In this document: positions 32,805 through 48,856 of the stretch, one piece after another
Position numbering within the stretch: the stretch's first letter is position 1
Layout: each line of letters opens with the position of its first letter
Virus record (IMG/VR): IMGVR_UViG_3300045988_130413
Direction: 5' to 3' (one strand)
Length of the DNA stretch: 64,000 bases
Source of the DNA: a virus
Notes under the pieces: generated by a model
What the model saw: only the letters and a program-made list of their open reading frames with translations
Told to the model about the DNA's origin: nothing
Database searches by the model: none
Program-made: the position numbers and the translations under genes

Positions 32805-33074
32805 TCAACAATGATATTCATATTTTACTAACCAGTATTCTTTGCCATCTTCTTTATAGAGAACAGCATGGTCATCATATGGCGTTGTTACCAAACTTTT
32901 AAGTTTTTGAACAGCTTCAGTTTTATTTCTATAAACTGCATTTTTATGAAAAGTTAAATTTCCATGATACCCACTTGATTCTTGCGGGTCATAAGCAAAA
33001 CTGTTTAAATCTCGTAAAATTTGGGATTCTTTTGTAGAGCTGTCATAACTCTTATACCCAATTAAATGGCTCAT
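32805..33074 (-). CDS. hypothetical protein
   Basis: 89-aa ORF. Confidence 0.35.
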   Translation of the reverse strand: MSHLIGYKSYDSSTKESQILRDLNSFAYDPQESSGYHGNLTFHKNAVYRNKTEAVQKLKSLVTTPYDDHAVLYKEDGKEYWLVKYEYHC

Positions 33075-33622
33075 AGCATATCTTTACACTCCTCATATTT
33101 ATTTTTTATATCTTCAATAACTGTATCAAGTGAAACTGGATAACAGTTATGAGAATCAACTCCTACATGATACATGAAAAAATTATCTTCATAAAAATTA
33201 ACATTCTGATGTGTATGACCAAATAAATTTAAAGTCATATGATGTAATCCTGAATCATCAACATTACCAGTTAATGTTGGATAATGACTCATATAAAAAT
33301 TATATTTTCTATATTTTAAAACTGTCGAATATCCAAGGCATTCAAGACCATTTTCTTTATAAAGATTAACTCTTGTATTTGTATCATGATTTCCAATGAT
33401 AAAATACTTTTTACCATTTAGCCGTTTTAAACATTCGAGTCCGTGTTCATTATCTTTCAGCATCAAATCGCCTAAGATATACACTTCATCTTCTGGCTGC
33501 ACCAACTCATTCCATCTTTTAATAATTTCTTCATCATGGTCAACAATATTCGGAAAACCTCTCGGTTCGTAGATAAAAAACTTATCATGACCAAAATGAA
33601 GGTCTGAAGTCACATAAATCAT
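33071..33622 (-). CDS. calcineurin-like binuclear metallophosphoesterase (Pnkp phosphatase-like)
   Basis: DLHFGH, GDL, GNHD motifs; 4-nt overlap with upstream kinase gene. Confidence 0.6.
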   Translation of the reverse strand: MIYVTSDLHFGHDKFFIYEPRGFPNIVDHDEEIIKRWNELVQPEDEVYILGDLMLKDNEHGLECLKRLNGKKYFIIGNHDTNTRVNLYKENGLECLGYSTVLKYRKYNFYMSHYPTLTGNVDDSGLHHMTLNLFGHTHQNVNFYEDNFFMYHVGVDSHNCYPVSLDTVIEDIKNKYEECKDML

Positions 33623-34203
33623 TCTACATACTCCTTATCGGCATCTCCTACAATCAAAATATGTTTGTAGGTATATTTTTCATTGTAAGTTGGCTTATCA
33701 AAAGTATAAAACATTCTTCTGATTGTTCCTCTTGGAACATAAGCACGTCCCATTCCTTTTCGATTTTCATTCTGAGCAAGAATCTGAGCAAGTGGTAAAT
33801 TAAATACAACTGGAATAATATCTACTCCATCTAAATCAAGTCTATCAAGGACTCGATTTCTTGCTTTTTCACTCAGATGAGTTGCATCTGCGAAAACTGC
33901 AATATCATCAGTTGCTTCATTTAAAGCATTTTTAATTCTATTACAGAACTCATCAAAGACATCATCTTCATACTTAAAAATATTTTTATCATCTTCGTTT
34001 AAGAACTCAGCTCTTACTTCATCTCTTGACACATGTACACACTTGTAAGTCGTTGCCTGTGCCATTTCCTTCTTGACGTAAGTCGTCTTGCCTGATCCTG
34101 CAGGTCCGCACATAAGAAAGAGAATCTTGTGCTTCATCTTTATACACCCCATTTTCAAAATTTTCTTTAAACTCAAGAACATCCTCATATGATTTACATT
34201 CAA
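33619..34203 (-). CDS. P-loop polynucleotide kinase-like protein
   Basis: MCGPAGSGKTTYV Walker A; probable real start MKHKILF (~34137). Confidence 0.55.
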   Translation of the reverse strand: MNVNHMRMFLSLKKILKMGCIKMKHKILFLMCGPAGSGKTTYVKKEMAQATTYKCVHVSRDEVRAEFLNEDDKNIFKYEDDVFDEFCNRIKNALNEATDDIAVFADATHLSEKARNRVLDRLDLDGVDIIPVVFNLPLAQILAQNENRKGMGRAYVPRGTIRRMFYTFDKPTYNEKYTYKHILIVGDADKEYVE

Positions 34204-34369
34204 TATGATTTACTTCTTGTTTGCAGAATACACAGTACATTTTCTTTCTATGAAATCTACCATGTTGATGACTATTACGACGTGGTAAACTCATATTTTT
34301 ATGACCGCAATTCATACAATAGAAATCATTGATTATCATTTTTCCATTTCTTCGTCCCATTAGTATCAA
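34019..34369 (-). CDS. small zinc-ribbon protein (3' part overlaps kinase gene in another frame)
   Basis: CMNCGH...CVFCKQ; overlap suggests the true end is uncertain. Confidence 0.3.
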   Translation of the reverse strand: MILMGRRNGKMIINDFYCMNCGHKNMSLPRRNSHQHGRFHRKKMYCVFCKQEVNHIECKSYEDVLEFKENFENGVYKDEAQDSLSYVRTCRIRQDDLRQEGNGTGNDLQVCTCVKR

Positions 34370-34396
34370 TTCCTTTTAATTATTTATTACATATAT

Positions 34397-34425
34397 ATTA
34401 TATAATATTTTTTATAAAATATCAA
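34397..34425 (-). promoter_or_regulatory. consensus phage promoter, copy 1 of tandem pair
   Basis: TTGATA-17-TATAAT. Confidence 0.5.
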
Positions 34426-34447
34426 TTAAGATATTTTATTTAGTGTC

Positions 34448-34472
34448 GGAAAGGATTTTTAAAATCCTTTCC
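34448..34472 (-). terminator. perfect hairpin terminator between tandem promoters
   Basis: GGAAAGGATTTT-TAAAATCCTTTCC. Confidence 0.55.
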
Positions 34473-34488
34473 TTAACTTTCTATATAT

Positions 34489-34742: not shown

Positions 34743-34745
34743 TTT

Positions 34746-35924
34746 TTATCTCCTCTGCATAATTCCAAAAGGATTGTCGCTATAATAGTCTCCTTCAATT
34801 TGAGGAGCATATTCATTACAATGAGTAATGATAATTTTTTTAGAAAATCTTGTATCAAGTTTGACTTTTTCAAAATCATTGTCAATTCGAGTAATTACAT
34901 CACTTTTTTTCATTACACCATATCTTAATCCGCCCTGGAAATCATTGTGTACATTTGTTTTATCAAACATCTCTGTATTGATTTCTTTTTTCTGAGCCTC
35001 CTGCTCAATAGGACCAACCCCATGTCTGGTTACATATGAACGTGTTACATAGCAAGCATCAACTGAAATGTCTTTTTTATCTGCTAAAATCTCAAAAGGA
35101 TATGTTACTCCTGTACGAGAAGTGGTATGCCAAATATCATCATAATAAAAATCAAGTCCTAATCCTTGACCATTTTCAAAGATAAAACTATCAAACTTAT
35201 TATAAAGATTATCAAAAGTAATAATTTCATTTCTCTCAAGGAAAAATAATATATCACTTCTAAAATTACAAATTAAAGACTGTCTACCAACAGAATGTTT
35301 ATCAAAATACTCTCTGTAAGTAGTAATTTTATCAAGCTGCACTCCACGTTTAAAAAGAATTACAAGACAATCTCTCCAAATTTCTTCCATATGAAAAAGA
35401 TATTCTTCGTCTGTCCAGCTTGCAAAATCAGCAACCGTAAAATGAGTCTTCATTGTAGGGTCGCCATATCTGTCCTCAATAGCACACCAAGAGCCAAAAC
35501 CGCAAGAACCATATTCTCTTTCACCATTCTGCTCGGCAATCCAATTTTCTGTAATATGGTCAATCATCATATCAAAAGGAGTAATTACTTTTGCTTCTGG
35601 ATCAACATATCCCTTTAAATTCAAAGGAAATAAATGCTGTTCTAATAATTCATAATACTCCTTTGTATAAGTCATAGGATGAATAAAAAAGGTTTTCGCA
35701 AAAAAAGTTGGAACTCCTTCTGCGGTTCCACTCCCAAAATGATGATATACATGCCGTAACTTGGTTGTATAATCAACTGTATGACCACGCTGAGCTGTTC
35801 CATTGTGAAAGATTACTACTGGCTTTAAGCCTCGATTAAGAGCATCTTCACAAAAATGATTTGTTACAAGACCTTTTCCTTCATCTCCAAAGTTTGCTCC
35901 AATAACAATTTTACTTTCTTTCAT
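34746..35924 (-). CDS. adenylosuccinate synthetase-family protein (PurA/PurZ-like)
   Basis: N-terminal GANFGDEGKGLV P-loop and NGTAQRGHTV match PurA GDEGKGK / GGHNAGHT; divergent elsewhere. Confidence 0.6.
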   Translation of the reverse strand: MKESKIVIGANFGDEGKGLVTNHFCEDALNRGLKPVVIFHNGTAQRGHTVDYTTKLRHVYHHFGSGTAEGVPTFFAKTFFIHPMTYTKEYYELLEQHLFPLNLKGYVDPEAKVITPFDMMIDHITENWIAEQNGEREYGSCGFGSWCAIEDRYGDPTMKTHFTVADFASWTDEEYLFHMEEIWRDCLVILFKRGVQLDKITTYREYFDKHSVGRQSLICNFRSDILFFLERNEIITFDNLYNKFDSFIFENGQGLGLDFYYDDIWHTTSRTGVTYPFEILADKKDISVDACYVTRSYVTRHGVGPIEQEAQKKEINTEMFDKTNVHNDFQGGLRYGVMKKSDVITRIDNDFEKVKLDTRFSKKIIITHCNEYAPQIEGDYYSDNPFGIMQRR

Positions 35925-36258: not shown

Positions 36259-36287
36259 ATTATATTATATTTTTAATAAAAAATCAA
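36259..36287 (-). promoter_or_regulatory. consensus phage promoter
   Basis: TTGATT-17-TATAAT. Confidence 0.5.
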
Positions 36288-36308
36288 AGGAGGACTATTG
36301 TCCTCCTT
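36287..36308 (-). terminator. hairpin terminator
   Basis: AAGGAGGAC-TATT-GTCCTCCTT followed by U-run. Confidence 0.5.
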
Positions 36309-36315
36309 TTATATT

Positions 36316-37236
36316 TTAAATATCCCAGCTCACTTCAGAAGAAGCTGTATCATTATCATTAATGTCAATTTTAACTGGACCAGTTTCAAAAGCTGTTCCT
36401 GTTTCACTTCCATGACTAATTACAATATCTGTAATAATCTTTGCAAGACCATTTAAGCCAGATACGAAGTAATGGTCATTTCCTACAAGTTCTTTCCAAG
36501 ACTCATCTAAGTCTGGATGTCTGCTGCACAGCCACTGATAAGAGCTTTCTTTATCATCAATGGAGATATGGTAAACATCAAATTTGTCAAAAACTTCTTT
36601 CTTTAAATCTCCTGTTTCAACATCACCTTGAAGAGAATCTCCTGTGCAATCAGCTAATCCCCATTTTGGTAAATAAGGATTCGGCTTTTCATCTCCCATT
36701 GTAATGATAATGCCTTTCTGACCTCTATCCCAGCAATCAAGTTTGCAATGGTTTAATCCCATGTACCAAGCGGCTGTATAAGACTCAAAACTATTACCAC
36801 CACCGCCGCCTTCAAAATACATCTTATCAAGCTGCTCCGCAATTCTAATATCAGATTCAAACTGAGACATCTGAATTGGTGCTCTGTCATAAGCGAGGTC
36901 TCCGATTCCCATTACGCAAAACTCAACGTCCTTAATAGAGTTATCTGCATAAATATCAGTCATAATCTCATTCAGTTTCTTAGCAACCTGGACTGCGGCG
37001 CCGCCCATAGAACCAGTTACATCAAGTGCCAAAATAACTGGAACTGTATGCGGATGTTCGTCAGAATCACAACATTCACGCATTACTCCTTTTGGATTTA
37101 AAGCTGCGTCAAGTTTACGAGATGTATAAAACTCCTGTGCTGAAAAAGCCATTGTATCAAACTCGTCAAGGGAAACTCCCCTTGAACGAGATGTATAATC
37201 ACTAAATGCCTTAGTTGTCCAACTTCCTCCACCCAT
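36316..37236 (-). CDS. von Willebrand factor A (VWA) domain protein
   Basis: MIDAS motif LALDVTGSMGG. Confidence 0.6.
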   Translation of the reverse strand: MGGGSWTTKAFSDYTSRSRGVSLDEFDTMAFSAQEFYTSRKLDAALNPKGVMRECCDSDEHPHTVPVILALDVTGSMGGAAVQVAKKLNEIMTDIYADNSIKDVEFCVMGIGDLAYDRAPIQMSQFESDIRIAEQLDKMYFEGGGGGNSFESYTAAWYMGLNHCKLDCWDRGQKGIIITMGDEKPNPYLPKWGLADCTGDSLQGDVETGDLKKEVFDKFDVYHISIDDKESSYQWLCSRHPDLDESWKELVGNDHYFVSGLNGLAKIITDIVISHGSETGTAFETGPVKIDINDNDTASSEVSWDI

Positions 37237-37997
37237 TAGTCTTCGTCCTCCTCATCATCATCTGTGTTAACTACCGGAGCATCACCAAAATCAAAAGCTC
37301 CATCAAACATATTCTCAAACATGTTTCCGCTATTTCCCATCATCATAAACATCATAGGATTCATGCCACCCATGTTCATAGAACCGCCTGTGTTATTTCC
37401 ATTAAACATCTGGCTCATCATCATCATGCTCATCATAGAAGACATAGAACCATTGTCCTTAGTCATATTCATAAATGGACTGAAAATCTTACCATAGCAG
37501 TATGTTTTTCCCATGAAGACATGATGCTCTGGAATAGTCTCCTGAATGGTAGAATCTTTATAACTGAAAGTCTTAATGGAATTTTTTCCTACCTCAATAA
37601 CTGCTCTTGGTTCGTTATTAACCAGAATAATGTCACCAACGGCAACTTTAAATGTAGGAACTACCCAAAATGCTCCATCCATATCAAAAGCGAAATTATC
37701 GCAGTTTGTAAGTTTCATTGTTTTAACATTGAATGTTTTGTAGCCATTCTGCACTTTAATGGCAATCTTACCATTAGCACCCATCTTGCAATAACCTTTT
37801 GCTACCGGCTTAAACATTCCATTAAACATATTTCCAAAATCAAACATATTCTCTTCTTTCCTTTCCTTCTGCTCTTTTTCTGTATCTCTGACAATAGCCC
37901 AATGATCCATTATATCGCCTATATTTCTTAGAGTTTTATCTAAGATTTCTGAAAAGTTTGGATCATCAATACCGAAAGCATATCCATTTTTTATCAT
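37236..37997 (-). CDS. hypothetical protein with Met/Gly/Asn-rich low-complexity tail
   Basis: 253-aa ORF, C-terminal MMSMMMMSQMFNGNNTGGSMNMGGMNPMMFMMMG. Confidence 0.4.
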   Translation of the reverse strand: MIKNGYAFGIDDPNFSEILDKTLRNIGDIMDHWAIVRDTEKEQKERKEENMFDFGNMFNGMFKPVAKGYCKMGANGKIAIKVQNGYKTFNVKTMKLTNCDNFAFDMDGAFWVVPTFKVAVGDIILVNNEPRAVIEVGKNSIKTFSYKDSTIQETIPEHHVFMGKTYCYGKIFSPFMNMTKDNGSMSSMMSMMMMSQMFNGNNTGGSMNMGGMNPMMFMMMGNSGNMFENMFDGAFDFGDAPVVNTDDDEEDED

Positions 37998-38022
37998 TTC
38001 TTTTCTTTAACTTTCTATATAT

Positions 38023-38051
38023 ATTATATTATATTTTTTTTATTTTATCAA
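38023..38051 (-). promoter_or_regulatory. consensus phage promoter
   Basis: TTGATA-17-TATAAT. Confidence 0.5.
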
Positions 38052-38059
38052 TTTACATA

Positions 38060-38428
38060 TTACTTATCCTCATCATCATAACAGTAAAAATGCTCATCAG
38101 GATCTTTTCTTACAGAATCCATACATCCATTAGGAACTTCAAGAGCTTGAACTGGAGTTAAATCTCCATATAACTTTTGATACCAGCTTGGATGATGGCA
38201 TTTAATATAAGCAGGGTCGCCTACACAATCCGTATATCCTCTCGGACATACTGGATTATATCTCCGAAACTGAGAATACTGAGGTACTTCTGCATATATA
38301 GGATTTTCTCTGCATTTAATGCAAAGACTTTTTGGTGCTACACATTTATCACATCTTGTCATTTTATTAATCCTCAAAACCGCTATTTGCGTCAAACAGT
38401 ACATTTTGTTCCCAAGTATCCAAATCAA
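38060..38428 (-). CDS. hypothetical Cys-rich protein
   Basis: Many CxxC pairs. Confidence 0.3.
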   Translation of the reverse strand: MIWILGNKMYCLTQIAVLRINKMTRCDKCVAPKSLCIKCRENPIYAEVPQYSQFRRYNPVCPRGYTDCVGDPAYIKCHHPSWYQKLYGDLTPVQALEVPNGCMDSVRKDPDEHFYCYDDEDK

Positions 38429-39107
38429 TTAATGGCAAACTTCCTGTGAAGAAACATCCACCATCAATATCAATTTTATGAGCTTTGCCCGCAGAATCTT
38501 TGCAGTAGAAATATGCTCCAGGAGAAGCTTTCTTTCCGCTCATCTCACACATATACTCATAACAATAATGACTTAAAAGAGGAACAGGAGTATGTCCATG
38601 AATCATAACTACATTATCCATTCCGCCTTCTTCATCCCATTCATCATCAAAATGCTCTCGGTTCCAGATGAAATCATCTTCAAATTCCGGAAATCCTAAG
38701 TGCGGACCAGGCGTAAAACCTGAATGAGATAAGATTACAACTTCTCCATTTTTATTATCATAACGATACCATTTAGGAAGATTGTCGATAATATTAATGT
38801 ATTTTTCATCACTTCCATCTTCTTCCCATTCTGCAACAGTAGATTGACCGCCATTAGCACAATGAAGTCTTGTGCAATGCTTTGTCCGCATAGAATCTGC
38901 GAACATCTGTTCGTGATTGCCGCAGATTAAGAAGAAATGTTCAGAATCTTCAAGAACTTCTTTTAAAATCTTAAATCCTGCTGGACCTCTATCTACACAA
39001 TCACCTAAAATATAGCAAAAACTATTGTCTGCATATACAATATTTTTCACCATTTCCCATAAATCGTACTGACCATGAAGATCAGAACAACAATATACAT
39101 GACTCAT
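38367..39107 (-). CDS. lambda-phosphatase-like Ser/Thr protein phosphatase (metallophosphoesterase)
   Basis: SDLHGQ, GDCVDRGP, GNHE motifs. Confidence 0.7.
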   Translation of the reverse strand: MSHVYCCSDLHGQYDLWEMVKNIVYADNSFCYILGDCVDRGPAGFKILKEVLEDSEHFFLICGNHEQMFADSMRTKHCTRLHCANGGQSTVAEWEEDGSDEKYINIIDNLPKWYRYDNKNGEVVILSHSGFTPGPHLGFPEFEDDFIWNREHFDDEWDEEGGMDNVVMIHGHTPVPLLSHYCYEYMCEMSGKKASPGAYFYCKDSAGKAHKIDIDGGCFFTGSLPLIDLDTWEQNVLFDANSGFED

Positions 39108-39135
39108 ATTTTACGCCTCATATTCTTTATAATAA

Positions 39136-39336
39136 TTATTTGTTGTTTACTTGAAAAGATGTTACTAAAAGTCCTTCATTTTTTAATAAAGCGACAATTT
39201 CATCTTCTGGAATTTCATACCAACCAGGATTCTGATACTGAAGAACCTGATAAGCTAAAGACTCTAAAGCATCTTCCAGTTCACATCTGTCACAGCCACC
39301 AAATTCAATCATTTTTATTTTTCCTTTCTTTTTCAT
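39136..39336 (-). CDS. hypothetical protein
   Basis: 66-aa ORF. Confidence 0.3.
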   Translation of the reverse strand: MKKKGKIKMIEFGGCDRCELEDALESLAYQVLQYQNPGWYEIPEDEIVALLKNEGLLVTSFQVNNK

Positions 39337-39347
39337 TTGATATATAT

Positions 39348-39376
39348 ATTATATAATATTTTTTATAAAAAATCAA
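39348..39376 (-). promoter_or_regulatory. consensus phage promoter
   Basis: TTGATT-17-TATAAT. Confidence 0.5.
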
Positions 39377-39552
39377 TGCCCTATCTTTTTGATAGGGCAT
39401 TACGTTAATAATGTATTATATTTAAAATAATTTGTGCGAGCCCGCCAAAAATGAAACCTGTTATATAGATATGACTTGGCTCATTAAATTTAGTGCTTAA
39501 AATAGCACCTGCTACACAAACCACTATAAATATAATAAAAAAGACAATATCC

Positions 39553-40092: not shown

Positions 40093-40102
40093 ATATAACC
40101 TC

Positions 40103-40564: not shown

Positions 40565-40565
40565 T

Positions 40566-41307: not shown

Positions 41308-41325
41308 TTTCTTTACTCCTTTTTA

Positions 41326-41505
41326 TTTATTTCCTAAAGTCATCTATAGTCATTATTAGATTCAAAACAAAACAAATTCCCCAACAAATAGCACAAAAGA
41401 TTGAAGTTCCAATCCTAAAATCTGTTGTAGCGAATGAAGCCTGCACACAAAAAAGAAGACAAACCACTAAATCTAAAAGTGCCGTTATAAGATACAAAAA
41501 TCCCA
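41326..41505 (-). CDS. 59-aa hydrophobic membrane peptide
   Basis: Manual translation MGFLYLITALLDLVVCLLFCVQASFATTDFRIGTSIFCAICWGICFVLNLIMTIDDFRK with AAGGGAG RBS; below ORF-track cutoff. Confidence 0.3.
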
Positions 41506-41525
41506 TAATATTTACTCCCTTCTTA

Positions 41526-41555
41526 GAAGTTCCATTCCTTAAGAATGGAACTTCA
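41526..41555 (-). terminator. perfect 12-bp hairpin overlapping RNA ligase stop codon
   Basis: GAAGTTCCATTC-CTTAAG-GAATGGAACTTC. Confidence 0.5.
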
Positions 41556-42729
41556 GTAGAAATTCATTGGAAACCGCTTTAAAGGACTGAACACCATCCT
41601 GAGAACGGAATACAAGACCTTCACGCATCTTTCCATCTACTACAGAATCACCGGTCGCAATAGCAAGAAGTTCATCAACTGTATCTGGAAGGATAAAGTT
41701 TTCATCCACAATCGGCACCCACGGAATACCATACTCCATCATTAATTTGCTTGCCCGCTTAGAATCCCAACGACCTTCCGCAGAAGTGATGAAGTTAAAT
41801 CCCATAAAGTTATGCTCTTTCAGAGAGTATTCTCTCTTCTGGATACCCTGACCATAAGTTTCACCTTGAAGTGTTACCCATTCAAGGTCTGGACGATTTC
41901 TGAGAATCTCCTGGAGAGTTGCTTCAACATTGTATTTTTCAGCCATTTCAACGTAAACGTTGGTATCATAAAAACAAGACTTATCTGGCTTATCAAATAC
42001 TACGTTACGAGAGCAGATATAAAACTCAAATTTTTCTTTCTTCAAGAAACGAGTTTTAGTTCTTTTCATTGTAAAGGTAGTAGAAGTACCATCAATTTTT
42101 TCAGTTGCAACCCATGGATTTTTATTCTCAAGAATCCAAGGCATGTTCTGTACACGCTCTTCATCTGTTTTAGAAACCCATGCCGGCCATCCGGTCTTCT
42201 TATCAGAAGTTTTACCAAAGAACAAGAATAAGATTTTCTTACCCCAAGTTCTACGCATTAACCATCTAAAAGGCTGATGAGAAAACAATTTTCCATGTCT
42301 CTGAGCCATCTTTTTGTACTTATCTACAGAAGATGCTTTACGAGCATTATCTTCTTCAACTGCATAAGTTACTTTTAATTTCTGAGTTAAAAAGTCACCA
42401 AGTTTATAAGCATCTTTCTCCCAACCGAAGTCCTCAAAGCCCATCAACAGACCCTGAGAAATTACAGTACCTTTAAAATATTTCTGAGTCTTAATTTTAA
42501 AATGCTTCGGCTCAAGAAACATAAATGGCTCTTCTGCTGGAACTTTAGAATCAATCTCAAAGTAAACAGCTAAATCACCTGGCTTAAACTGGTCTTTACG
42601 AACCATAATATGCCAACCATTTACGATAGCTACTTCTACTCTGTCAGCTCCTTCAATAGGACGAATCTCGTCAACTTTGACAACATAAGCAAGCTCTCTT
42701 TCTTTCTTTTCATTCAGCATACCTATCAA
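41539..42729 (-). CDS. ATP-dependent RNA ligase (Rnl-family nucleotidyltransferase with N-terminal OB-like domain)
   Basis: Motif I VATEKIDGTS (KxDG), motif IV/V EGLVFR; consensus promoter upstream. Confidence 0.65.
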   Translation of the reverse strand: MIGMLNEKKERELAYVVKVDEIRPIEGADRVEVAIVNGWHIMVRKDQFKPGDLAVYFEIDSKVPAEEPFMFLEPKHFKIKTQKYFKGTVISQGLLMGFEDFGWEKDAYKLGDFLTQKLKVTYAVEEDNARKASSVDKYKKMAQRHGKLFSHQPFRWLMRRTWGKKILFLFFGKTSDKKTGWPAWVSKTDEERVQNMPWILENKNPWVATEKIDGTSTTFTMKRTKTRFLKKEKFEFYICSRNVVFDKPDKSCFYDTNVYVEMAEKYNVEATLQEILRNRPDLEWVTLQGETYGQGIQKREYSLKEHNFMGFNFITSAEGRWDSKRASKLMMEYGIPWVPIVDENFILPDTVDELLAIATGDSVVDGKMREGLVFRSQDGVQSFKAVSNEFLLKFHS

Positions 42730-42752
42730 TCTCCTTTATTTATTGTAAATAT

Positions 42753-42781
42753 ATTATATAAAATTTTTAAAAGTAAATCAA
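42753..42781 (-). promoter_or_regulatory. consensus phage promoter upstream of RNA ligase
   Basis: TTGATT-17-TATAAT. Confidence 0.5.
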
Positions 42782-43353
42782 TTAAGGTCTGTTTCTTTCA
42801 AACAATCGTGGTAAATTTTAATAAGGGTTTTTTTATTTAGAAATGCCTTATTTCCAATGCCATTTTGCTCTCTCCACGCTAAACGATATAATACTTTATC
42901 TATAAACATTTTAGTCGCAGGGTGCATTGCAATAGGATTTTTAGTTTTATTCTGCCACCATTTATATTCTCCTTGATATGTAAAAGTATTTCCCATATAA
43001 GCATGTCCCGCACCTAAATAATCACAAAGTAATTCCAAAAGATATTTGTCTGGCATTGGGAGTGCAGTGCCACCTTTATCGAAATTATCCTGCCAGTACT
43101 CGTAGTGGTGTCGATTCCGACCTTTATGATGCTGCCAAGCTAAAGACATTCCATTTTCTTCTTTACAAGCATCTATTGGAGAGCGAGTCCCCTGCCAATA
43201 TTTGACACCTTCCCAAAATTCAACAGGAGAAAATTTAGATAAATCGTGTGTAATTCCCTGCTTATAAAGACCAATTTTAAAGCAGTATTTTCCTACCCAA
43301 TATTTATGTTTACATACAGTTTTTAAATGTCCAAAAAAGTTTTTAATTTTCAT
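42778..43353 (-). CDS. hypothetical protein
   Basis: 191-aa ORF. Confidence 0.4.
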   Translation of the reverse strand: MKIKNFFGHLKTVCKHKYWVGKYCFKIGLYKQGITHDLSKFSPVEFWEGVKYWQGTRSPIDACKEENGMSLAWQHHKGRNRHHYEYWQDNFDKGGTALPMPDKYLLELLCDYLGAGHAYMGNTFTYQGEYKWWQNKTKNPIAMHPATKMFIDKVLYRLAWREQNGIGNKAFLNKKTLIKIYHDCLKETDLN

Positions 43354-43372
43354 ATTTTATTCCTCTAAATAT

Positions 43373-43762
43373 TCATACTCTATTTAAATATTCATACTCT
43401 ATTTTATGCAAAGAATCATCTTTTTTATAATAAACATAAGTACATTTTACCTGTATCTCATCTCCTTCTTTAATGGTATTAAAGATAGAAGAAGAAACGT
43501 CTACTTTTTCATTATTTACGCCATATAAATAATATGAATGAGTTGTAACAGGAATAAGAACCTTCCCGCTCATTACAACAGAATGATGTACATCATCCTC
43601 TTTATTTATAACTTCAACTGTTCTTACTTCAGTTTTTAAATAAAATTGGTCATAATACTTCTTTATCCCAGCTATAATTCCAATACAAGCTGCGACAATA
43701 AGCACCACAACTACAATGTGCTTCATAATTTCTTTTAATCTTTGTTTTTTCCAATAGTTCAT
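43373..43762 (-). CDS. membrane protein
   Basis: N-terminal TM HIVVVVLIVAACIGIIAGI. Confidence 0.35.
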   Translation of the reverse strand: MNYWKKQRLKEIMKHIVVVVLIVAACIGIIAGIKKYYDQFYLKTEVRTVEVINKEDDVHHSVVMSGKVLIPVTTHSYYLYGVNNEKVDVSSSIFNTIKEGDEIQVKCTYVYYKKDDSLHKIEYEYLNRV

Positions 43763-44091
43763 TATTCAACTCTCCAACCGGCTTCCTTACAAACTCTTTT
43801 CATATTCTGAACTCCAACAGGATTCATACTATGAAATTTAAAAGTCGCATAAATATGCCAGCCCCGCAGTCTTTGGCAACATTCAAGCCAGTCAAGAATT
43901 TTAATATAGTCTCCGCCTTTCTCATAATATTCACCGGCATCATGATCTAAATTAATTTCATTAACTTCAAGAATGTCTCCTTCTGGTCTGACAAGAGTAA
44001 TAAGACACATTTCTGCGTCCCAAACACTCTTAATCCAAATATAAGATTCATCTGGTGCGGGCCGCATATCATCAATCCAAAGTTTAATCAT
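43762..44091 (-). CDS. hypothetical protein
   Basis: 109-aa ORF. Confidence 0.35.
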   Translation of the reverse strand: MIKLWIDDMRPAPDESYIWIKSVWDAEMCLITLVRPEGDILEVNEINLDHDAGEYYEKGGDYIKILDWLECCQRLRGWHIYATFKFHSMNPVGVQNMKRVCKEAGWRVE

Positions 44092-44092
44092 A

Positions 44093-44911
44093 TTATTTCA
44101 CCTCAAATTTCCAATAATAGAAGTTATACTGTTTCTTTGTATTGTAGGATTTTTTAATCCTTTTGGCTACATTGTTTACATTTACAGTTGGATTGTTTCT
44201 CATACTCTTATCATATGATTTAACATATTCAACTGCTTCTTTAAGATTCTCAAATTTCTTAGTTCTTTCTTCTTCAAAATTTTTAGTAGGGCAACAGAAA
44301 ACATCAAAACGAGTATCTTCATATTCGATTTGGTCAGTTGTAATTTCCTTATACTCCATAAAGACATTTGCATCTACTTCAGAAGCTTTCTCATTTTTAC
44401 AGCCTTCATAAACCTCTTTTAACATCTTCGCATCATCAAGAGAATTATGGGTCTGAACAATCTCTTCTCCTCTAAAATATTCGCAAACTTTAGCAAGATT
44501 AATCAGCTTAATTAAGCCAAAATGAACTTTGACGGCAGGAGCAAAATCCTTCATATCTGTATTCATATAGCCAAGAATTGCTTTTGCCTTAAAGCTATTT
44601 GTTTTGCGGAAGGTCGCTTTGATAAAATCTGTATCACAATTCCCATAACAATAAAACTCAGGAATATCATCGCCGCAATCTTCAAAGCAAAAATCAAAAA
44701 ACTTATTGAATACTTCTTCTGGAGAAGGAGCTGCCTCAACCATTTCTGTAGTAATACCTGTTAAATCAGTGATAAACTTAGAAACATTCTTCTTTGTATT
44801 CTCTGGAGTATGTACAAGAGAATAAAATTCTTTTCCATCTTCTCGAACACATCCAATAGAAATAATGTAATTGGAAAACTGCATTGCTTCAAAGTCAATA
44901 AAATATTTCAT
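44093..44911 (-). CDS. DEDDh 3'-5' exonuclease (DnaQ/RNase T-like)
   Basis: Exo I FIDFEA, Exo III HNSLDDAKML. Confidence 0.6.
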   Translation of the reverse strand: MKYFIDFEAMQFSNYIISIGCVREDGKEFYSLVHTPENTKKNVSKFITDLTGITTEMVEAAPSPEEVFNKFFDFCFEDCGDDIPEFYCYGNCDTDFIKATFRKTNSFKAKAILGYMNTDMKDFAPAVKVHFGLIKLINLAKVCEYFRGEEIVQTHNSLDDAKMLKEVYEGCKNEKASEVDANVFMEYKEITTDQIEYEDTRFDVFCCPTKNFEEERTKKFENLKEAVEYVKSYDKSMRNNPTVNVNNVAKRIKKSYNTKKQYNFYYWKFEVK

Positions 44912-44929
44912 AATGTATCAATCCTCTCT

Positions 44930-45112
44930 TTAGTCAAGTCTTACTTTTTTAGTATAAAGTTTCTTTTCAACGATGCTTCCGCATTCTGGACATCTAAAAT
45001 AAGAAAAAATAGAATTTCGACATTCATCTTGTGACGCAATAAATACACAATGACATTTTGAACATTTTAACCGATAACCATATTTTTCGCCAGATTTAAA
45101 AATTTTAATCAT
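44930..45112 (-). CDS. zinc-ribbon protein
   Basis: CSKCHC...CPECG. Confidence 0.35.
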   Translation of the reverse strand: MIKIFKSGEKYGYRLKCSKCHCVFIASQDECRNSIFSYFRCPECGSIVEKKLYTKKVRLD

Positions 45113-45145
45113 TTCTTTTTATCCTTTCCTTAACTTTCTATATAT

Positions 45146-45174
45146 ATTATATTATAATTTTAATAAAAAATCAA
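45146..45174 (-). promoter_or_regulatory. consensus phage promoter
   Basis: TTGATT-17-TATAAT. Confidence 0.5.
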
Positions 45175-45186
45175 TAAAGGAAAAAC

Positions 45187-45975
45187 TTATTCAGTTTTTC
45201 CTTTATCAAAATTAGGAGATTTTCTAAAATAAGCAGGAAGTAAATAATTTGGGTCGTTCCATCTTTTCCATATCTCGTCTAAGTCTTCGATTACTTTAAA
45301 ATATTGTTCAACGTGCGGGCGCTCTATTCTGTCTGCATGAAAGTGACCAAAAAGCCAAACATTCCAATTAATCTTATCTTTAAAAGAATCAAACCAAACT
45401 TCCATAGAATCATCTACAGTGGACTGGTCAATCATAGATAAAAACAAATCAGTTGGTTCCCAACTTAATGGACAAGTATGAGTAAAGACAAAATCAAAAT
45501 TTTGTCCTGCATACATCGCTTCAATAGTCTGCATTTCTGCTTCTGTTAACTGCTCATTTGGATACCAAGTATAATGATTTTCAAGTCTATACCACTTATC
45601 CACAGAATAAGCTCCACCTATTACAAGCGTATTATGACCAAGAAAATCATAATTAGAGCCATCCATGAGATAATGGATATGAGGATAACCGGGTTCAATG
45701 AAAACATAATTCGCAACATCATCATCCCAAACCTCTTCAATACCTTTAACATCTTCTGGACGAGCTTCATGATTCCCCCTTACTAAATAAAATGTGCATC
45801 CATATTGTTCAAGTTGCATCTTAATATCATGTCGCCTTGCCGCACTCTTGTAAAAATTAACCCCTGCATCTCCTAAGATAATAATACCAGTCTCTTTTGG
45901 ATTTTGTATTTCAAGCCATTCAAAACGATCCATACAGCCATGAGTATCTCCTGTTACAAAAAACTGTTTAATCAT
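45187..45975 (-). CDS. calcineurin-like metallophosphoesterase
   Basis: GDTHG, GDAG, GNHE, GHFH motifs. Confidence 0.65.
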   Translation of the reverse strand: MIKQFFVTGDTHGCMDRFEWLEIQNPKETGIIILGDAGVNFYKSAARRHDIKMQLEQYGCTFYLVRGNHEARPEDVKGIEEVWDDDVANYVFIEPGYPHIHYLMDGSNYDFLGHNTLVIGGAYSVDKWYRLENHYTWYPNEQLTEAEMQTIEAMYAGQNFDFVFTHTCPLSWEPTDLFLSMIDQSTVDDSMEVWFDSFKDKINWNVWLFGHFHADRIERPHVEQYFKVIEDLDEIWKRWNDPNYLLPAYFRKSPNFDKGKTE

Positions 45976-46793
45976 TCCCTTTCCTCCAACTCAAAAGCAA
46001 TACTTTTCTTCATAATTTCTGCTTGAACTTCTTGAAGAAGATTTTCAGCTTCTTCATCAGTATAGTTAAATTCAGAATCTTTTGTATATGGGGCACAAAT
46101 TTTATCAATATGAGCCATATGTTCATCTGCAACTTTAATAGCTTTTTCTTTTGGATAAAGACCAGTTTTAATGTCTTTTAAATATTGCGGGTTAGCTGGA
46201 CATAAACATTCTTTATATGGTGCTCCAGCGATATATTTATCGAGGTATTCATCAATTCTTACAAGCTGATAAAGCTGTTTTGGGTCATAGTTAAACTTTT
46301 CAAAAGCTTCTTTATGTGCTTCAGTCTCTTTAATAAGAGCATATCTTTTTCCAAGAGCAATACCAGACATAGCCTTTACTGCGAAATAAGGATTATAATG
46401 TGCAATAACTTCATTTTCCGCAATTAATTTATTCCATTCTTTTTCATACATTGGATTGATGATTTTATAATTAGTGAAAAGAATCTCAATAAAATTTAGA
46501 TTCTGTTTGCGGAAAGTATCAAACATAAGTCTAATATCTTTAAAGTCAATATGCTCTCCATTAGCCCTAAAATGAGTTGTAGACATAGGCTTACGATTAT
46601 AAATAAAATCATTTAATGTTGGAGTGGTAATAAGTTTTGTATCAATATCAGAATCTTCAGTCTCAAGACCGTAATTCTGACTACCTTGCAGAAAAATACC
46701 TACAATATTATTTTTAGCAAAGTATTGTTTAGATTCAAGATAATGCTCTTGAATACCACTCGCAGTTTTAATTATTGTATTAAGGTCTGCCAT
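45972..46793 (-). CDS. Pol-beta superfamily nucleotidyltransferase
   Basis: GIFLQGSQNYGLETEDSDIDT (GS...DxD). Confidence 0.55.
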   Translation of the reverse strand: MADLNTIIKTASGIQEHYLESKQYFAKNNIVGIFLQGSQNYGLETEDSDIDTKLITTPTLNDFIYNRKPMSTTHFRANGEHIDFKDIRLMFDTFRKQNLNFIEILFTNYKIINPMYEKEWNKLIAENEVIAHYNPYFAVKAMSGIALGKRYALIKETEAHKEAFEKFNYDPKQLYQLVRIDEYLDKYIAGAPYKECLCPANPQYLKDIKTGLYPKEKAIKVADEHMAHIDKICAPYTKDSEFNYTDEEAENLLQEVQAEIMKKSIAFELEERE

Positions 46794-46825
46794 ACTTTCT
46801 CACCTTCCTTTAACTTTCTATATAT

Positions 46826-46854
46826 ATTATAATAAATTTTTAATAAAAAATCAA
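46826..46854 (-). promoter_or_regulatory. consensus phage promoter
   Basis: TTGATT-17-TATAAT. Confidence 0.5.
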
Positions 46855-46883
46855 AAAGGGAGAAAATATTTAAACTTTCTCCC

Positions 46884-47240
46884 TTAATCATCGGTTGCCC
46901 ATTGTCCCTTTTTAATCAATCTTACAAGTTCATAATCATGCTGGGTTGGTTCAACATAAAATTTATATTTCGCAGAAGCATACTCAGGAATGTCAAAATG
47001 ATGATTTGCGTTCCATACATAATCTAAACAATCAATAACAGCTTGTTGTTTATCTTTATCAGTTCCATTTGTGTTTGCAGAAATATAAGCTAAGATTTCT
47101 TCTTCTTCGCTTCCCCAATCATAAGATGGAAAAATTTGCATCTTTTCCGCAGGTTTATGTCGAAAAGACATACCTAAAGATGTAAATAATACACATAAAA
47201 GAATAATTAAAAACATTTTTTCTTTCCAGTTAAAATTCAT
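46884..47240 (-). CDS. secreted/lipoprotein-like hypothetical protein
   Basis: Signal-peptide-like MFLIILLCVLFTSLG. Confidence 0.35.
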   Translation of the reverse strand: MNFNWKEKMFLIILLCVLFTSLGMSFRHKPAEKMQIFPSYDWGSEEEEILAYISANTNGTDKDKQQAVIDCLDYVWNANHHFDIPEYASAKYKFYVEPTQHDYELVRLIKKGQWATDD

Positions 47241-47254
47241 ACATGAATCCTTTC

Positions 47255-47683
47255 TTATAAGAAATAATGTAATACAGGAATATATTTATCCCGCAATTTT
47301 TCAGTAAGCGTATCAGTTAAAGTCATATGGTCTTTCATATCTGCCTGTTTAACGATAAAAGCATAATCATCTTTTGCGTCAATAATTTTATGAATATAAT
47401 CTTCATATTTTTCTTGAGGGTCTTTTGTTAAAAGAACTAATGAATTATAACTCTCTATTCCCAGAATAGACATTAAATCTTCTTTTGGACATTCAGTGTC
47501 TTCTAACAAATCGTGCGCCAAAGCAATCATATAAGCTTTTGTTATATCCATTTTTAAAAGGTCAGCTTTTGCGGTCGCATATTCAGCAACCCGCAAAGCA
47601 TGAGCTAATTTTTTCTTAGGATAATATTGAGCTGCTAAAGTGAATAATTTATTCATTTTTGTAATATCATAATTATAACCCAT
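47255..47683 (-). CDS. HD-domain phosphohydrolase (YfbR-like 5'-deoxynucleotidase family, DatZ-like)
   Basis: HALRVA...ALAHDLLEDT (H..HD..D). Confidence 0.6.
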   Translation of the reverse strand: MGYNYDITKMNKLFTLAAQYYPKKKLAHALRVAEYATAKADLLKMDITKAYMIALAHDLLEDTECPKEDLMSILGIESYNSLVLLTKDPQEKYEDYIHKIIDAKDDYAFIVKQADMKDHMTLTDTLTEKLRDKYIPVLHYFL

Positions 47684-47991
47684 TAATGTCCCTCCTCACA
47701 AATACCTAAAGAAATTTCTCCTGTATATCCGCAATAATACATGGAAAGTTTCTTAGAGCCTTTTTTAGAAAAATAATACCAGGTATCCTGTTCCCAGCCA
47801 TTAGTATCCCAGTCATCATCTCTATCATAACCAAGTTTATCAAAAACATCCATAAACTGACATGGACCAAGGTTTAAAAGGCTAAGTTCAATATTTGTAG
47901 CATTACCAACTTCAAGCTCATGAATTACACCTCTTATAAAAGGCATTACTTTATCAATATCTTCCTCAGAAATGCTATATCCTCTTATCAT
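47683..47991 (-). CDS. hypothetical protein
   Basis: 102-aa ORF. Confidence 0.35.
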   Translation of the reverse strand: MIRGYSISEEDIDKVMPFIRGVIHELEVGNATNIELSLLNLGPCQFMDVFDKLGYDRDDDWDTNGWEQDTWYYFSKKGSKKLSMYYCGYTGEISLGICEEGH

Positions 47992-48856
47992 TTATTCTTC
48001 TCCTATATAAATTAAATCATCAACGTATTTGCGGTCTTCGCCTTTTAAAATAGGCATATTTTTATCAATAGCCCAGATAGGTCTTTCTTCAATAATTGTA
48101 GTTGTAACTCTATCTTCTCCAAAAGGCTGAGGTTCTCTTTTTATATTTTCAGTTACTTTTGTTGCAACTTTAATACATGCAGTTCCTCGTTTACATGGTA
48201 TTGTAAAGTCATTCCAGTTAATGCCATATTTGGTCATTAACATATCTTGAATCATATTACAAGTTTTATCTTGAAGTTCATCATGTGAAAAATGAGCTTG
48301 TCCAACCATTTGAATACTATTTCTTGTTGCATCAAGTTGCCGCCAATAAATGAGGTTAGTTACCTCTTCTTTTGGAATGTTAAAACATCTGGCATCAAAC
48401 ATTGCCCCTTTTTCTACTGCACTTATATAATTGTCAAGTAAGCCTTCTCTTCTCTTTACAAGGGGGTCATGAGTTAAATTATATTCAACTACATTTTCAG
48501 AAAAATATTTGTTAAAAGCCATTGTTGCCATAGAAGCTGATACAGAGGTTAATTTTTGAACCTCATAATCAAACCAAGCATCTGAAGTGAATTTTTGATA
48601 ATCTACTAAAATCAGAGTAATTTCATCTGATTGTGTATATCCAAAAACGCAACCTTGAATATTTTCACATAGATATTTCATTGTTTGTTGCATTGTATCC
48701 ATTAGCACAAAGTCAAATGGTTTTTGAAAACCTCTTGTAAAAGTATGAAACGCCTTGCCGTCAAAGACGTATCGCTACTGGTGTTCTTCTCATAAGAACA
48801 GTTTTACTAACTTTTTCATAATTTTTCATTCTGTTAGCTAAATCACTTCTATCCAT
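47992..48856 (-). CDS. Thg1-like 3'-5' nucleotidyltransferase (tRNA-His guanylyltransferase family); needs +1 frameshift at CUU UGA C (~48763-48769)
   Basis: N-terminal frame MDRSDLANRMKNYEKVSKTVLMRRTPVAIRL then stop; +1 frame continues DGKAFHTF...FVLMDTMQQTMKYL...VFGYTQSDEITLIL...YWRQLDATRN, matching Thg1 VVVRLDGRNFHRF...IAYGQSDEYSFVF...SWRQ. Confidence 0.65.

Follow-up and report, generated by a model that had tools for sequence, protein, structure and literature searches.

A prfB-like +1 shift site in a phage Thg1-like gene and the putative RNA-repair island around it

How a phage could make use of a transfer RNA (tRNA)-repair gene that is interrupted by an early stop codon, and whether the enzymes encoded around that gene form one system, are the questions raised by a 64,000-nt stretch of viral DNA (IMG/VR record IMGVR_UViG_3300045988_130413), referred to below, in its whole length, as the window. 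The window has a GC content of ~32% and carries every long open reading frame (ORF) on the minus strand. A Thg1-like 3'-5' polymerase gene lies in it among genes for a kinase, phosphoesterases, an RNA ligase, an exonuclease, a nucleotidyltransferase (NTase) and an HD-domain hydrolase, which a first-pass annotation had read as a coordinated toolkit for RNA and tRNA repair. The seven ORFs on which that reading was built were all found on the minus strand, at or close to the positions given, and their domain calls were mostly upheld by profile and structure comparison. Evidence from profiles, structures and gene context supports the core idea, a set of phage enzymes that heal, restore and seal RNA ends; several of its specifics proved wrong or overstated. 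The reading that we favour, and regard as rather probable, is that of an RNA-repair and counter-defence island in which the Thg1-like gene is expressed via a +1 ribosomal frameshift, at a site that moved as part of a cassette with a homing endonuclease. On this reading, the region is an accessory-gene island of a ~190-kb low-GC gut phage whose host is probably among the Clostridia.

The Thg1-like gene and its shift site

Two features are central (coordinates are those of the window):
47992-48856, minus strand: Thg1-like 3'-5' polymerase gene in two frames, 48856-48764 in frame 0 (31 codons) and 48760-47992 in frame +1
48760-48769, minus strand: shift site CGT CTT TGA C, with CUU (Leu) in the P site, an in-frame UGA followed by C, and GAC in the +1 frame

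The assignment of this gene to the Thg1 family stands, but its annotation as a single ORF does not, as the gene measures 865 nt (3n+1) and frame 0 ends at a TGA (48763-48761) after 31 codons, with Thg1 homology resuming in the +1 frame. Before repair of the frame, the Pfam Thg1 profile is matched at positions 46-130 (57.6 bits); after +1 repair the match extends over positions 2-130 of 130 (108.3 bits). The frame-repaired protein is closest to the Thg1-like protein (TLP) of Bacillus thuringiensis, BtTLP (4kgk; E 3.9e-53, residues 6-229), and also matches phrog_4717 (3.3e-84). On the minus strand the gene reads ATG(48856)...GCG ATA CGT CTT TGA CGG CAA GGC, and skipping of one T yields ...AIRL-DGKAFHTFTRGF..., in which the GAC read after the shift provides the catalytic Asp of RLDG. 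Thus the catalytic RxDG Asp is restored, and the repaired protein contains both this residue and the SDE carboxylates. The predicted full-length +1 product has 288 aa and differs from BtTLP in an insert of ~23 residues, a longer C-terminus and the need for recoding in its expression.

Bacteria and phages seldom have conserved +1 programmed frameshifts; the textbook case is prfB, which encodes release factor 2 (RF2). The site in the Thg1-like gene shares with prfB the in-frame TGA, the preceding CTT (forming the slippery CTTT), the following C (14 of 15 unique sequences; TGA T in the other one) and the position early in the gene, at codon 32 as compared with codon 26 in Escherichia coli. In contrast to prfB, which has an AGGGGG Shine-Dalgarno (SD)-like element 3 nt upstream, the Thg1-like site is without one, and its product is a tRNA-repair enzyme rather than a release factor, with no obvious autoregulatory loop. 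The prfB motif, including the SD-like AGGGGG, has been defined previously, as has the setting of the shift rate by RF2 concentration (PMC12421855). In the mechanism proposed here, the Thg1-like gene would be expressed only by ribosomes that shift by +1: while CUU occupies the P site and the weak UGA-C stop the A site, peptidyl-tRNA-Leu would slip to UUU, leaving GAC as the next codon.

Three collections were screened with a degenerate pattern of the shifted junction. Matches came from seven viral contigs, nine metagenome contigs, a Clostridia metagenome-assembled genome and the cultured mouse-gut bacterium Eubacterium plexicaudatum ASF492, where the carrier is a prophage on contig AQFT02000004.1; one further match, in frame and due to chance, fell in a Nitrospirota repeat protein. 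After removal of duplicates there were ~16 distinct loci with 15 unique sequences and ~9 N-terminal variants, from more than 12 assemblies. CGT CTT TGA Y is common to all 15 unique sequences, and the +1 frame is open for 226-269 codons in every complete copy, even though the parts downstream of the shift site are only 43-59% identical to the window protein. Variability at third codon positions follows frame 0 upstream of the site (entropy 0.51/0.51/0.93 for the three positions) and frame +1 downstream of it (0.36/0.24/1.00). The same +1 periodicity is found in codons 8-19 past the site (0.44/0.40/1.02), which fall outside the search pattern; because they lie upstream of the first in-frame Met, these codons can be translated by shifted ribosomes only. 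In the 79 intact homologues the codons for Arg-Leu/Ile-Asp are variable, CGT CTT GAC being used a single time. The Arg codon before CUU is always CGT in the frameshifted genes, whereas the intact genes mostly have AGA or AGG.

Two simpler accounts of the junction were rejected. A sequencing error at a T-run is contradicted by the shortness of the run (only TTT) and by the recurrence of the same site in over 12 independent assemblies, one of them an isolate genome. Reading of TGA as an amino acid (code 4 or 25) is contradicted by frame 0 downstream of the site, which has no Thg1 similarity, and by the match of the +1 frame to BtTLP at 3.9e-53. Literature searches returned no papers on a frameshift in Thg1 or TLP genes and nothing dealing with phage TLPs; the literature searched appears to contain no report of the conserved prfB-type +1 site or of its link to a homing endonuclease.

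The 5' cassette and its homing endonuclease

The beginning of the gene has a history of its own, and a further feature has to be defined:
48761-48950, minus strand: 5' cassette, a putative homing-endonuclease co-conversion tract, which ends at the shift site and keeps the post-endonuclease flank TATACATCG

In their first 96 nt (48856-48761) the genes of the window and of strain L005 are 100% identical, but identity to L002, L003, L004, L006 (intact) and L009 is ~67%. The flanks are ~95% identical in all these strains, and identity resumes directly past the inserted T, at a junction where the intact allele reads ...ATTAGGCTGGACGGCAAGGC... (for example ...GCAATTAGGCTGGACGGCAAGGCG... in L002). 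This identity pattern, together with the scattering of frameshifted genes on the tree, suggests that the 5' segment behaves as a mobile cassette. A single origin of the frameshift was rejected, as the frameshifted genes are polyphyletic on a neighbour-joining tree of the whole proteins; cassette exchange explains their distribution better. One clade, comprising the L085 group and L089, is wholly frameshifted yet diverse.

In E. plexicaudatum, a LAGLIDADG endonuclease gene (Pfam 1.8e-19) lies directly upstream of the frameshifted gene. The same endonuclease gene (92-100% identity) precedes the frameshifted gene in eight of eight loci of the E. plexicaudatum group, seven of which are distinct, L086 and L100 being the same locus; the protein encoded in L100 (2085-3161) has 358 aa. 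A second LAGLIDADG lineage, 52% identical to the first, occupies the same position in L099 and L084/L090, which are close frameshifted relatives of the window. Altogether, a LAGLIDADG gene stands directly upstream in 9 of the ~16 distinct frameshifted loci, as against 0 of 79 intact loci. The order in L099 is o100, a 1.15-kb insert with the gene for a 341-aa endonuclease (1469-2494), AAAGGAGTTATACATCG, and the ATG; in L005 and the window the post-insert flank is joined straight to o100, and for this reason both are regarded as endonuclease-deleted derivatives. The window also lacks 12 nt (AAAGAAAGGAGT) that L005 has at the junction of o100 and the Thg1-like gene (48857-48870). This difference alters the C-terminus of o100 (48849-49151, 100 aa) and causes it to overlap the start of the Thg1-like gene by 8 nt.

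The closest parallel is found in T4, where the homing endonuclease gene mobA lies 5' of gene 60 and the bypassed 50-nt insert of gene 60 is believed to guard the DNA from being cut; the concept of a 'savior indel' whose effect is made good by frameshifting has also been established (PMC5009743). Both systems have an endonuclease gene 5' of a gene with an early insertion that is handled by recoding, and both show mobile-cassette behaviour. The Thg1-like system differs in that a 1-nt insertion and a +1 slip take the place of a 50-nt hop, and in that the endonuclease is of the LAGLIDADG type. By analogy, the +1 site and the LAGLIDADG gene may constitute a mobile recoding cassette, in which a 1-nt insertion at the catalytic Asp codon destroys the target and immunises its carrier, and ribosomes restore the frame because the insertion creates the naturally shifty CUU-UGA-C, a proposal to which we give slightly less than an even chance. 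Together with the 5' end of the gene, the extra T would travel with the endonuclease inserted just upstream, the insertion would most likely shield its carrier from cleavage, frameshifting would compensate for it, and the window would have lost the endonuclease and kept the cassette.

Enzymes of the putative repair island

The genes on which the repair reading depends are the following:
33071-33622, minus strand: calcineurin-type metallophosphoesterase MPE1, 183 aa (Pfam Metallophos_2; phrog_547, 2.6e-45; PDB 1xm7)
33619-34137, minus strand: P-loop polynucleotide-kinase-like protein of the AAA_33/KTI12 type, 172 aa (Pfam AAA_33, 2e-17; phrog_505 "polynucleotide kinase")
41539-42729, minus strand: Rnl5-family (Naegleria/Deinococcus-type) ATP-dependent RNA ligase (Pfam PHA02142 OB and RNA_ligase; phrog_968)
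42778-43353, minus strand: DUF5662 protein, directly upstream of the ligase (Pfam DUF5662, 1.1e-33)
43762-44091, minus strand: cRec (cyclic-phosphate-processing receiver) domain protein (Pfam cREC_REC, 7.9e-13)
44093-44911, minus strand: DEDDh (RNase T/DnaQ-like) 3'-5' exonuclease with a C-terminal extension of ~100 aa (Pfam RNase_T, 3e-17)
45187-45975, minus strand: second metallophosphoesterase, MPE2 (Pfam Metallophos, 1.4e-8; phrog_1649; motifs)
45972-46793, minus strand: probable divergent RlaP-type Pol-beta NTase with GSQNYG...DSD (RlaP matches of homologues; AlphaFold2 model)
47255-47683, minus strand: small alarmone hydrolase of the RelA/SpoT/Mesh1-type HD family (motifs HALR, HDLLED and ADMKDH)

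The ligase had been annotated as an Rnl-family ATP-dependent RNA ligase with KIDGTS as motif I, and the analysis places it more precisely in the RNA ligase family Rnl5. Motif I KIDGT (42085-42099, residue 211) aligns with KLDGS of NgrRnl, the FKxxS motif is FKAVS at residue 383, and the protein consists of a PHA02142 OB domain (residues 13-96) and an RNA_ligase domain (205-386), with no C-terminal domain. Its best solved match is the Naegleria gruberi RNA ligase 5cot (E 1.2e-27), with both domains aligned. Against NCBIfam TIGR02306, the DraRnl family, it scores 95 bits and misses the equivalog cut-off of 151; it is therefore considered a divergent Rnl5 member. Membership of the ligase in a DNA ligase family, and of the kinase among the deoxynucleoside monophosphate kinases, was checked in particular, and the two proteins were assigned to Rnl5 and to the Pnkp/PSTK/KTI12 type, respectively. 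Rnl5 enzymes seal duplex nicks whose 3'-OH strand is RNA (PMC7261155, PMC4408790), and the same activity is predicted from its family for the phage protein. Similarly, the DEDDh exonuclease is borne out by Pfam RNase_T and by the motifs DFE and HNSLDD, its NCBIfam matches of the PolC/DnaQ type being sub-threshold. The cRec family has been described in large phages (PMC7824862).

The kinase carries a Walker A motif, GPAGSGKT (34084-34107), and an SRD motif (34021-34029), and its catalytic Asp is aligned with the SSD of the Clostridium thermocellum Pnkp (CthPnkp) kinase domain (4gp7), its closest solved relative; T4 Pnk (1ly1) is matched at E 0.05. NCBIfam matches to PSTK and to bacterial Pnkp are both sub-threshold (25.8 bits for Pnkp, with a cut-off of 750). 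The kinase had been described as running from 34203 to 33619 and as fused to the phosphoesterase by gene overlap. Its identity and the overlap are confirmed, the kinase stop and the MPE1 start sharing 4 nt (ATGA), but the start was misplaced: it is probably ATG 34137 and not TTG 34203, because homologues are 160-172 aa long. Fusion of the kinase to other repair domains was rejected, as 76 of 76 homologues are without one; P0240 has a zinc-finger fusion that is unrelated to repair domains and also to the overlapping ORF of the window (34019-34369). The MPE1 motifs DLH, GDL, GNHD and GHTH are all intact. The kinase-MPE pairing is kept at 34-47% identity in L101 and L105 and is interrupted by a GIY-YIG gene in L103, and the order kinase, Metallophos_2, Band_7, PIN-PhoH is retained at 34-54% identity in L101, L103 and L105.

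Some further observations concern the surroundings of this pair. A PIN_4 and PhoH fusion (window 28621-29868) lies downstream of the kinase, phosphoesterase and Band-7 genes also in L101, L103 and L104, and may be an RNA-directed nuclease/ATPase of the same island. In L101:1-4440, from a 183-kb relative, the kinase-MPE module is preceded by DUF5662 and an NAD+ salvage set (isochorismatase/nicotinamidase, NAPRTase, NMNAT-like protein and NAD synthase), which ties the island to NAD+-centred conflict. A GIY-YIG homing-endonuclease-like gene stands in place of the Metallophos_2 partner of the kinase at L103:6602-7540 and L104:6602-7540. In the window, a 229-aa ORF at 23648-24337, starting MIGIYKITNKINGDAYIGQS, reads as a GIY-YIG endonuclease; it sits between topoisomerase/gyrase-like genes (19512-21890 and 24538-26250) and may be a free-standing homing endonuclease. 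Homing endonucleases seem to remodel the island repeatedly.

The set is like T4 Pnkp plus Rnl1 and like bacterial Pnkp/Hen1 in its kinase, phosphoesterase and ATP-dependent ligase chemistry, and the phosphoesterase of CthPnkp belongs, as does MPE1, to the calcineurin superfamily. In contrast to these systems, the phage parts are separate small proteins, Hen1 is absent, and the ligase is neither Rnl1 nor a Pnkp ligase domain. The analogy with T4 Pnkp/Rnl1 that had been drawn for this locus is thus a loose one, the ligase being of the duplex-nick-sealing Rnl5 type.

For the NTase and the HD protein, the superfamily calls were correct; the resemblance to the two parts of a CCA-adding enzyme was not, and they are better described as an RlaP-like protein and a RelA/SpoT-type hydrolase. 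The window NTase on its own did not reach RlaP PF10127 in Pfam at E<=0.01, its match to Pol-beta NTase was below threshold, and comparison with the PDB by sequence or profile gave no matches. PF10127 is matched by 17 of 28 homologues of the NTase (49-82% identity), at best with 9.1e-8. An AlphaFold2 model with a mean confidence (pLDDT) of 94 and the motifs give it a Pol-beta fold with GS...DxD and a helical C-terminal domain; the nearest folds are KNTase and HalB, and CCA-adding enzymes are not listed among the matches. MPE2 overlaps the NTase stop by 4 nt, and the Rnl5 gene lies 3.2 kb downstream of the NTase on the same strand, which holds in six close strains. RlaP adds one or two nucleoside monophosphates to the 3'-OH of damaged RNA, and excessively damaged tRNAs that have been repaired need this step before renewed aminoacylation (PMC12776372).

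The HD protein on its own matched the Pfam HD domain at threshold. Its motifs HxxR, HDLLEDT and VKxADMKDH are invariant in 24 homologues, and a profile of these homologues matched, in the PDB, the (p)ppApp hydrolase 7smg (3.6e-14), followed by small alarmone hydrolases (SAH), Mesh1 and Rel. Its model (pLDDT 92) has a Foldseek TM score of 0.73 to 7smg and of ~0.7 to SAH/Mesh1/Rel structures. Judged by these relatives, the protein would most likely degrade (p)ppGpp or (pp)pApp, or remove the 3'-pyrophosphate left by toxSAS from tRNA CCA ends; toxSAS enzymes, which have a role in immunity against phages, attach pyrophosphate to the CCA ends of tRNAs (PMC11245113).

The first-pass annotation had overlooked several genes, namely cRec, DUF5662, two metallophosphoesterases, PARG/macro, YqeY and band-7. 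These and the remaining features of the surroundings, as far as they are not given above, are:
17525-19465: NAD-dependent DNA ligase (LigA), separate from the Rnl5 ligase
31224-32756, minus strand: Band-7/flotillin protein, downstream of the kinase-MPE1 pair (Pfam Band_7)
34746-35924: divergent PurA-like protein with an adenylosuccinate-synthetase fold
36316-37236: vWA-like protein, 306 aa
37236-37997: Met/Gly-rich protein, 253 aa
38367-39107, minus strand: third metallophosphoesterase-like protein (motifs DLH, GD, GNHE and GH read from the sequence)
40103-40564, minus strand: YqeY
49347-50156, minus strand: PARG/macro-domain protein of the microbial type (Pfam PARG_cat_microb, 4.3e-29)
51841-53364, minus strand: DUF2828 and DUF7788/vWA protein, earlier "Rsr" (DUF7788, 5.2e-42; phrog_850 "RNA-binding protein")
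54172-54246, minus strand: tRNA-Lys(UUU) (ARAGORN; Rfam, 73.7 bits)

The first 30 kb of the window hold replication genes, which include a DnaE-like polymerase, LigA and topoisomerase subunits. The third metallophosphoesterase-like protein had no Pfam match at E<=0.01. The PurA-like, vWA-like and Met/Gly-rich genes are the commonest neighbours of distant Thg1-like genes (18-19 of 74 loci); PurZ of the Z-genome was considered for the PurA-like protein and rejected, a PDB sequence search having given only weak matches to ordinary PurA. The protein at 51841-53364 had been called Rsr; it contains DUF2828 and DUF7788/vWA and gave no Pfam TROVE match at E<=0.01, and Rfam scans of the window revealed no Y-RNA-like partner for it. 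The tRNA-Lys(UUU) gene was recovered by ARAGORN and Rfam, and six ordinary uninterrupted tRNA genes lie at 53.6-63.4 kb. The interrupted tRNAs that had been reported were not recovered, either by ARAGORN or by Rfam at the gathering threshold or at E<=1, and Rfam scans for Y RNA and group I introns near the tRNA cluster gave nothing above noise. Two weak tmRNA-like Rfam matches (54565-54582 and 55762-55829, minus strand; 15.4 and 13.9 bits, with a gathering score of 47) adjoin tRNA-Lys and tRNA-Leu and are probably noise or degenerate tRNA-like remnants.

Linkage of the genes, rival readings and significance

The intergenic gaps between 49151 and 41539 range from -8 to 90 nt. Terminator-like sites number 20, compared with 6.7±2.6 in shuffled sequence, and the larger gaps contain terminator-like hairpins followed by TTGATT-N17-TATAAT promoter-like sites; both calls are consensus matches only. 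The promoter-like sites lie at 46854, 45174, 42781, 39376 and 36287 (minus strand, within 36259-46854), four of the five just past a terminator-like hairpin, and TTGATT-N17-TATAAT may be an early-promoter consensus of the phage. The predicted transcription units are:
Unit 1: PARG, o69, o100, Thg1-like gene, o102, alarmone hydrolase and o118
Unit 2: RlaP and MPE2
Unit 3: o60, DEDDh, cRec, o129 and DUF5662
Unit 4: Rnl5 through YqeY and o179

At the nucleotide level, the 16-kb region gave zero matches in a megablast comparison with INPHARED. Gene neighbourhoods were compared in 80 phage loci centred on Thg1-like genes, of which six are ~95%-identical strains and 74 are more distant. The whole arrangement is shared by the six strains. 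Beyond them, parts of it recur in other combinations: in L105 the kinase has an Rnl5-type gene at a distance of 3 kb, in L092 an Rnl5 ligase is the immediate neighbour of the Thg1-like gene, and in L094 a DUF2828/vWA homologue is directly upstream of a frameshifted Thg1-like gene. Fusobacterium phage Fnu1 has a Thg1-like gene, a prohibitin and a 738-aa "RNA ligase" noted as "metallophosphoesterase". In phrog_8238, a 737-aa "RNA ligase", the first ~140 positions match the window kinase, and from its length and annotation we infer that the Fnu1 protein is a phrog_8238 member, that is, a Pnkp-like kinase-phosphatase-ligase fusion. The description of the locus as a coordinated system is not borne out, since the genes lie in several short transcription units and their full arrangement occurs only among ~95%-identical strains; the toolkit is read as a loosely linked functional network, not an operon.

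How such a network might operate can be proposed as follows. Host ribonucleases would leave 5'-OH ends together with 2',3'-cyclic-phosphate or 3'-phosphate ends, which the translationally coupled kinase and MPE1 would heal, possibly helped by cRec, the other two phosphoesterases and macro/PARG. The RlaP-type NTase would restore one or two lost 3' nucleotides. The Thg1-like enzyme would refill 5'-truncated tRNA acceptor stems in a template-dependent manner, Thg1-like proteins being known to repair 5'-truncated tRNA (PMC3061083). Finally, Rnl5 would seal 3'-OH/5'-phosphate nicks held in duplex. The substrates and the cooperation of the enzymes are what we infer from their families and context.

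Several observations weigh against this reading in one or another of its parts. Terminator-like hairpins with promoter-like sites interrupt the array, which is therefore not one operon. Within 10 kb of the Thg1-like gene, the 74 distant loci have the ligase once, RlaP and the kinase four times each, HD six times and MPE1 nine times. The similarity of the kinase to Pnkp is weak (E 3.6e-4), and the nearest relatives of the DEDDh protein are DNA polymerase III proofreading domains, in a phage that has a DnaE-type polymerase. Rnl5 requires a duplex nick and its physiological role is uncharted (PMC7261155, PMC4408790, PMC5397189), so that its presence does not imply an Rnl1-like sealing of broken anticodon loops. 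As to the shift site, the 9 nt upstream in the frameshifted sequences (GCGATACGT, ATCCTTCGT and similar) are not purine-rich and contain no SD-like element, and a conserved downstream stimulatory structure was not detected, most lineages having folding z-scores close to 0; the weak hairpin that the RGFQKPF codons near the site can form is probably a by-product of the coding sequence. With neither an SD-like element nor a structure, frameshift efficiency may be low. L082/L091, L092 and L094 are frameshifted without an upstream endonuclease; L089 has no obvious one, and in L096 the upstream sequence is too short to judge. In L089:4100-6540, ~2 kb directly upstream of the Thg1-like gene are without a coding-strand ORF of at least 80 aa and could be a decayed endonuclease or a non-coding element. 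Between the window and L005, a strain of 96% identity, synonymous differences outnumber nonsynonymous ones by 36:1; as 31 of these 37 sites are standing variation also present in intact alleles, pointing to recombination, the ratio is no proof of selection after the shift. The ~95%-identical L009 (10001-10858) has an intact junction and an in-frame TAA at codon 45 (44 in window numbering), reading GGT TTT TAA AAA CCA where relatives have CAA; it is a probable nonsense allele and suggests that the gene is dispensable in some strains.

The strongest competitor, possible though less probable than the island reading, is a collection of unconnected accessory 'moron' units without a healing-and-sealing pathway, in which only the Thg1-like and RlaP proteins act on tRNA. 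The hydrolase, PARG/macro, cRec and the phosphoesterases would then degrade nucleotide or ADP-ribose signals of host immunity, and DEDDh and Rnl5 would serve DNA replication and repair, for instance in proofreading and in sealing ribonucleotide-terminated nicks. This agrees with the several short transcription units, with a block kept only among ~95%-identical strains, and with the assignment of HD-alarmone phosphodiesterases, macro, cRec and calcineurin-like phosphodiesterases to counter-nucleotide defence (PMC7824862). The closeness of DEDDh to PolC/DnaQ, the uncharted role of Rnl5 and the sensitivity of a DraRnl knockout to ionising radiation point in the same direction. However, the phage has its own LigA for DNA, the translational coupling of kinase with MPE1 and of RlaP with MPE2 and the conserved kinase-MPE pairing resemble end-healing modules, and in other phages the Thg1-like gene adjoins Rnl5 or DUF2828/vWA and an Rnl5-type gene lies near the kinase (L105).

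With regard to the frameshift, it is conceivable but unlikely that the site is a prfB-like regulatory sensor, through which more Thg1-like protein is made when RF2 becomes less active, as might happen towards the end of infection or when translation is stressed, the endonuclease link being incidental hitch-hiking. The CUU UGA C heptamer is indeed the prfB site, at which the RF2 level sets the shift rate (PMC12421855), and several frameshifted lineages persist without the endonuclease. The invariable CGT before CUU in the frameshifted genes, in place of the AGA/AGG of most intact ones, would also suit a sensor, but could simply mean that the cassettes share one ancestor. What makes shifting in prfB highly efficient and tunable is the SD-like element, which the Thg1-like site lacks, and the endonuclease association (9 of 16 against 0 of 79), together with the cassette boundary at the site, argues for an origin in endonuclease immunity.

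That the Thg1-like gene is a pseudogene, with the extra T as a scar of homing-endonuclease-driven recombination and no full-length protein, appears improbable. The stop after 31 codons, the lack of an SD-like stimulator or a stimulatory structure, the L009 nonsense codon and the sharing of most window-L005 polymorphisms with intact alleles are what would be expected of it. Against this, the site is retained in genes that are 43-59% identical, with a +1 ORF that is open in all complete copies and free of secondary disabling mutations, and the clade formed by the L085 group and L089 is diverse yet entirely frameshifted. Further, +1 codon periodicity starts right at the site, upstream of any in-frame start codon, and the insertion produced the exact prfB slippery stop rather than an arbitrary indel.

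A split CCA-adding enzyme made up of the NTase and the HD protein, as first proposed, can practically be dismissed, for although both superfamilies are present in bacterial CCA-adding enzymes and the two genes are ~460 nt apart, the HD profile matches RelA/SpoT-family hydrolases only, no CCA enzyme appeared in sequence, profile or fold searches, the NTase homologues match RlaP PF10127 with KNTase and HalB as the nearest folds, and a terminator-like hairpin and a promoter-like site separate the genes.

Among the readings considered, we retain that of an RNA-repair and counter-defence island with a recoded Thg1-like gene. The toolkit is of a kind already catalogued in large phages, and its domains and intact active sites are present in the window. 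The comparative genomics of Iyer et al. (2021, Viruses 13:63) inventoried ATP-dependent ligases, polynucleotide kinase, phosphoesterases, RlaP, Thg1, ROT/TROVE, cRec, macro, HD-alarmone phosphodiesterase and tRNAs in jumbo phages (PMC7824862). The window has much the same parts list, but its ligase is of the Rnl5 type, whereas these inventories name RtcB, Rnl1 and Rnl2, and its Thg1-like gene is recoded. As such it is a well-resolved gut-phage addition to the predicted RNA-repair repertoire of phages. The position of Rnl5 beside a kinase/phosphoesterase pair, RlaP and a Thg1-like protein provides candidate partners and substrates for Rnl5, and the alarmone hydrolase may serve to counter defences of the toxSAS/CapRel type, in which tRNA is pyrophosphorylated.

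The frameshift outweighs the toolkit in importance, since the prfB heptamer is reused in an unrelated gene, without an SD-like element, across deep divergence and in association with a homing endonuclease, and thereby offers a natural test of the shifting capacity of bare CUU-UGA-C. Automated annotation will label frameshifted genes of this kind as pseudogenes. As a cultured mouse-gut isolate carries the cassette, the idea is directly testable. If it is true, this would be the second natural case, after T4 mobA/gene 60, of recoding as immunity to a homing endonuclease and, within the literature searched, the first prfB-type +1 site outside prfB to be reported in a phage gene. It would also mean that SD-less shifting takes place in Clostridia-infecting phages and in the cultivable host Eubacterium plexicaudatum ASF492.

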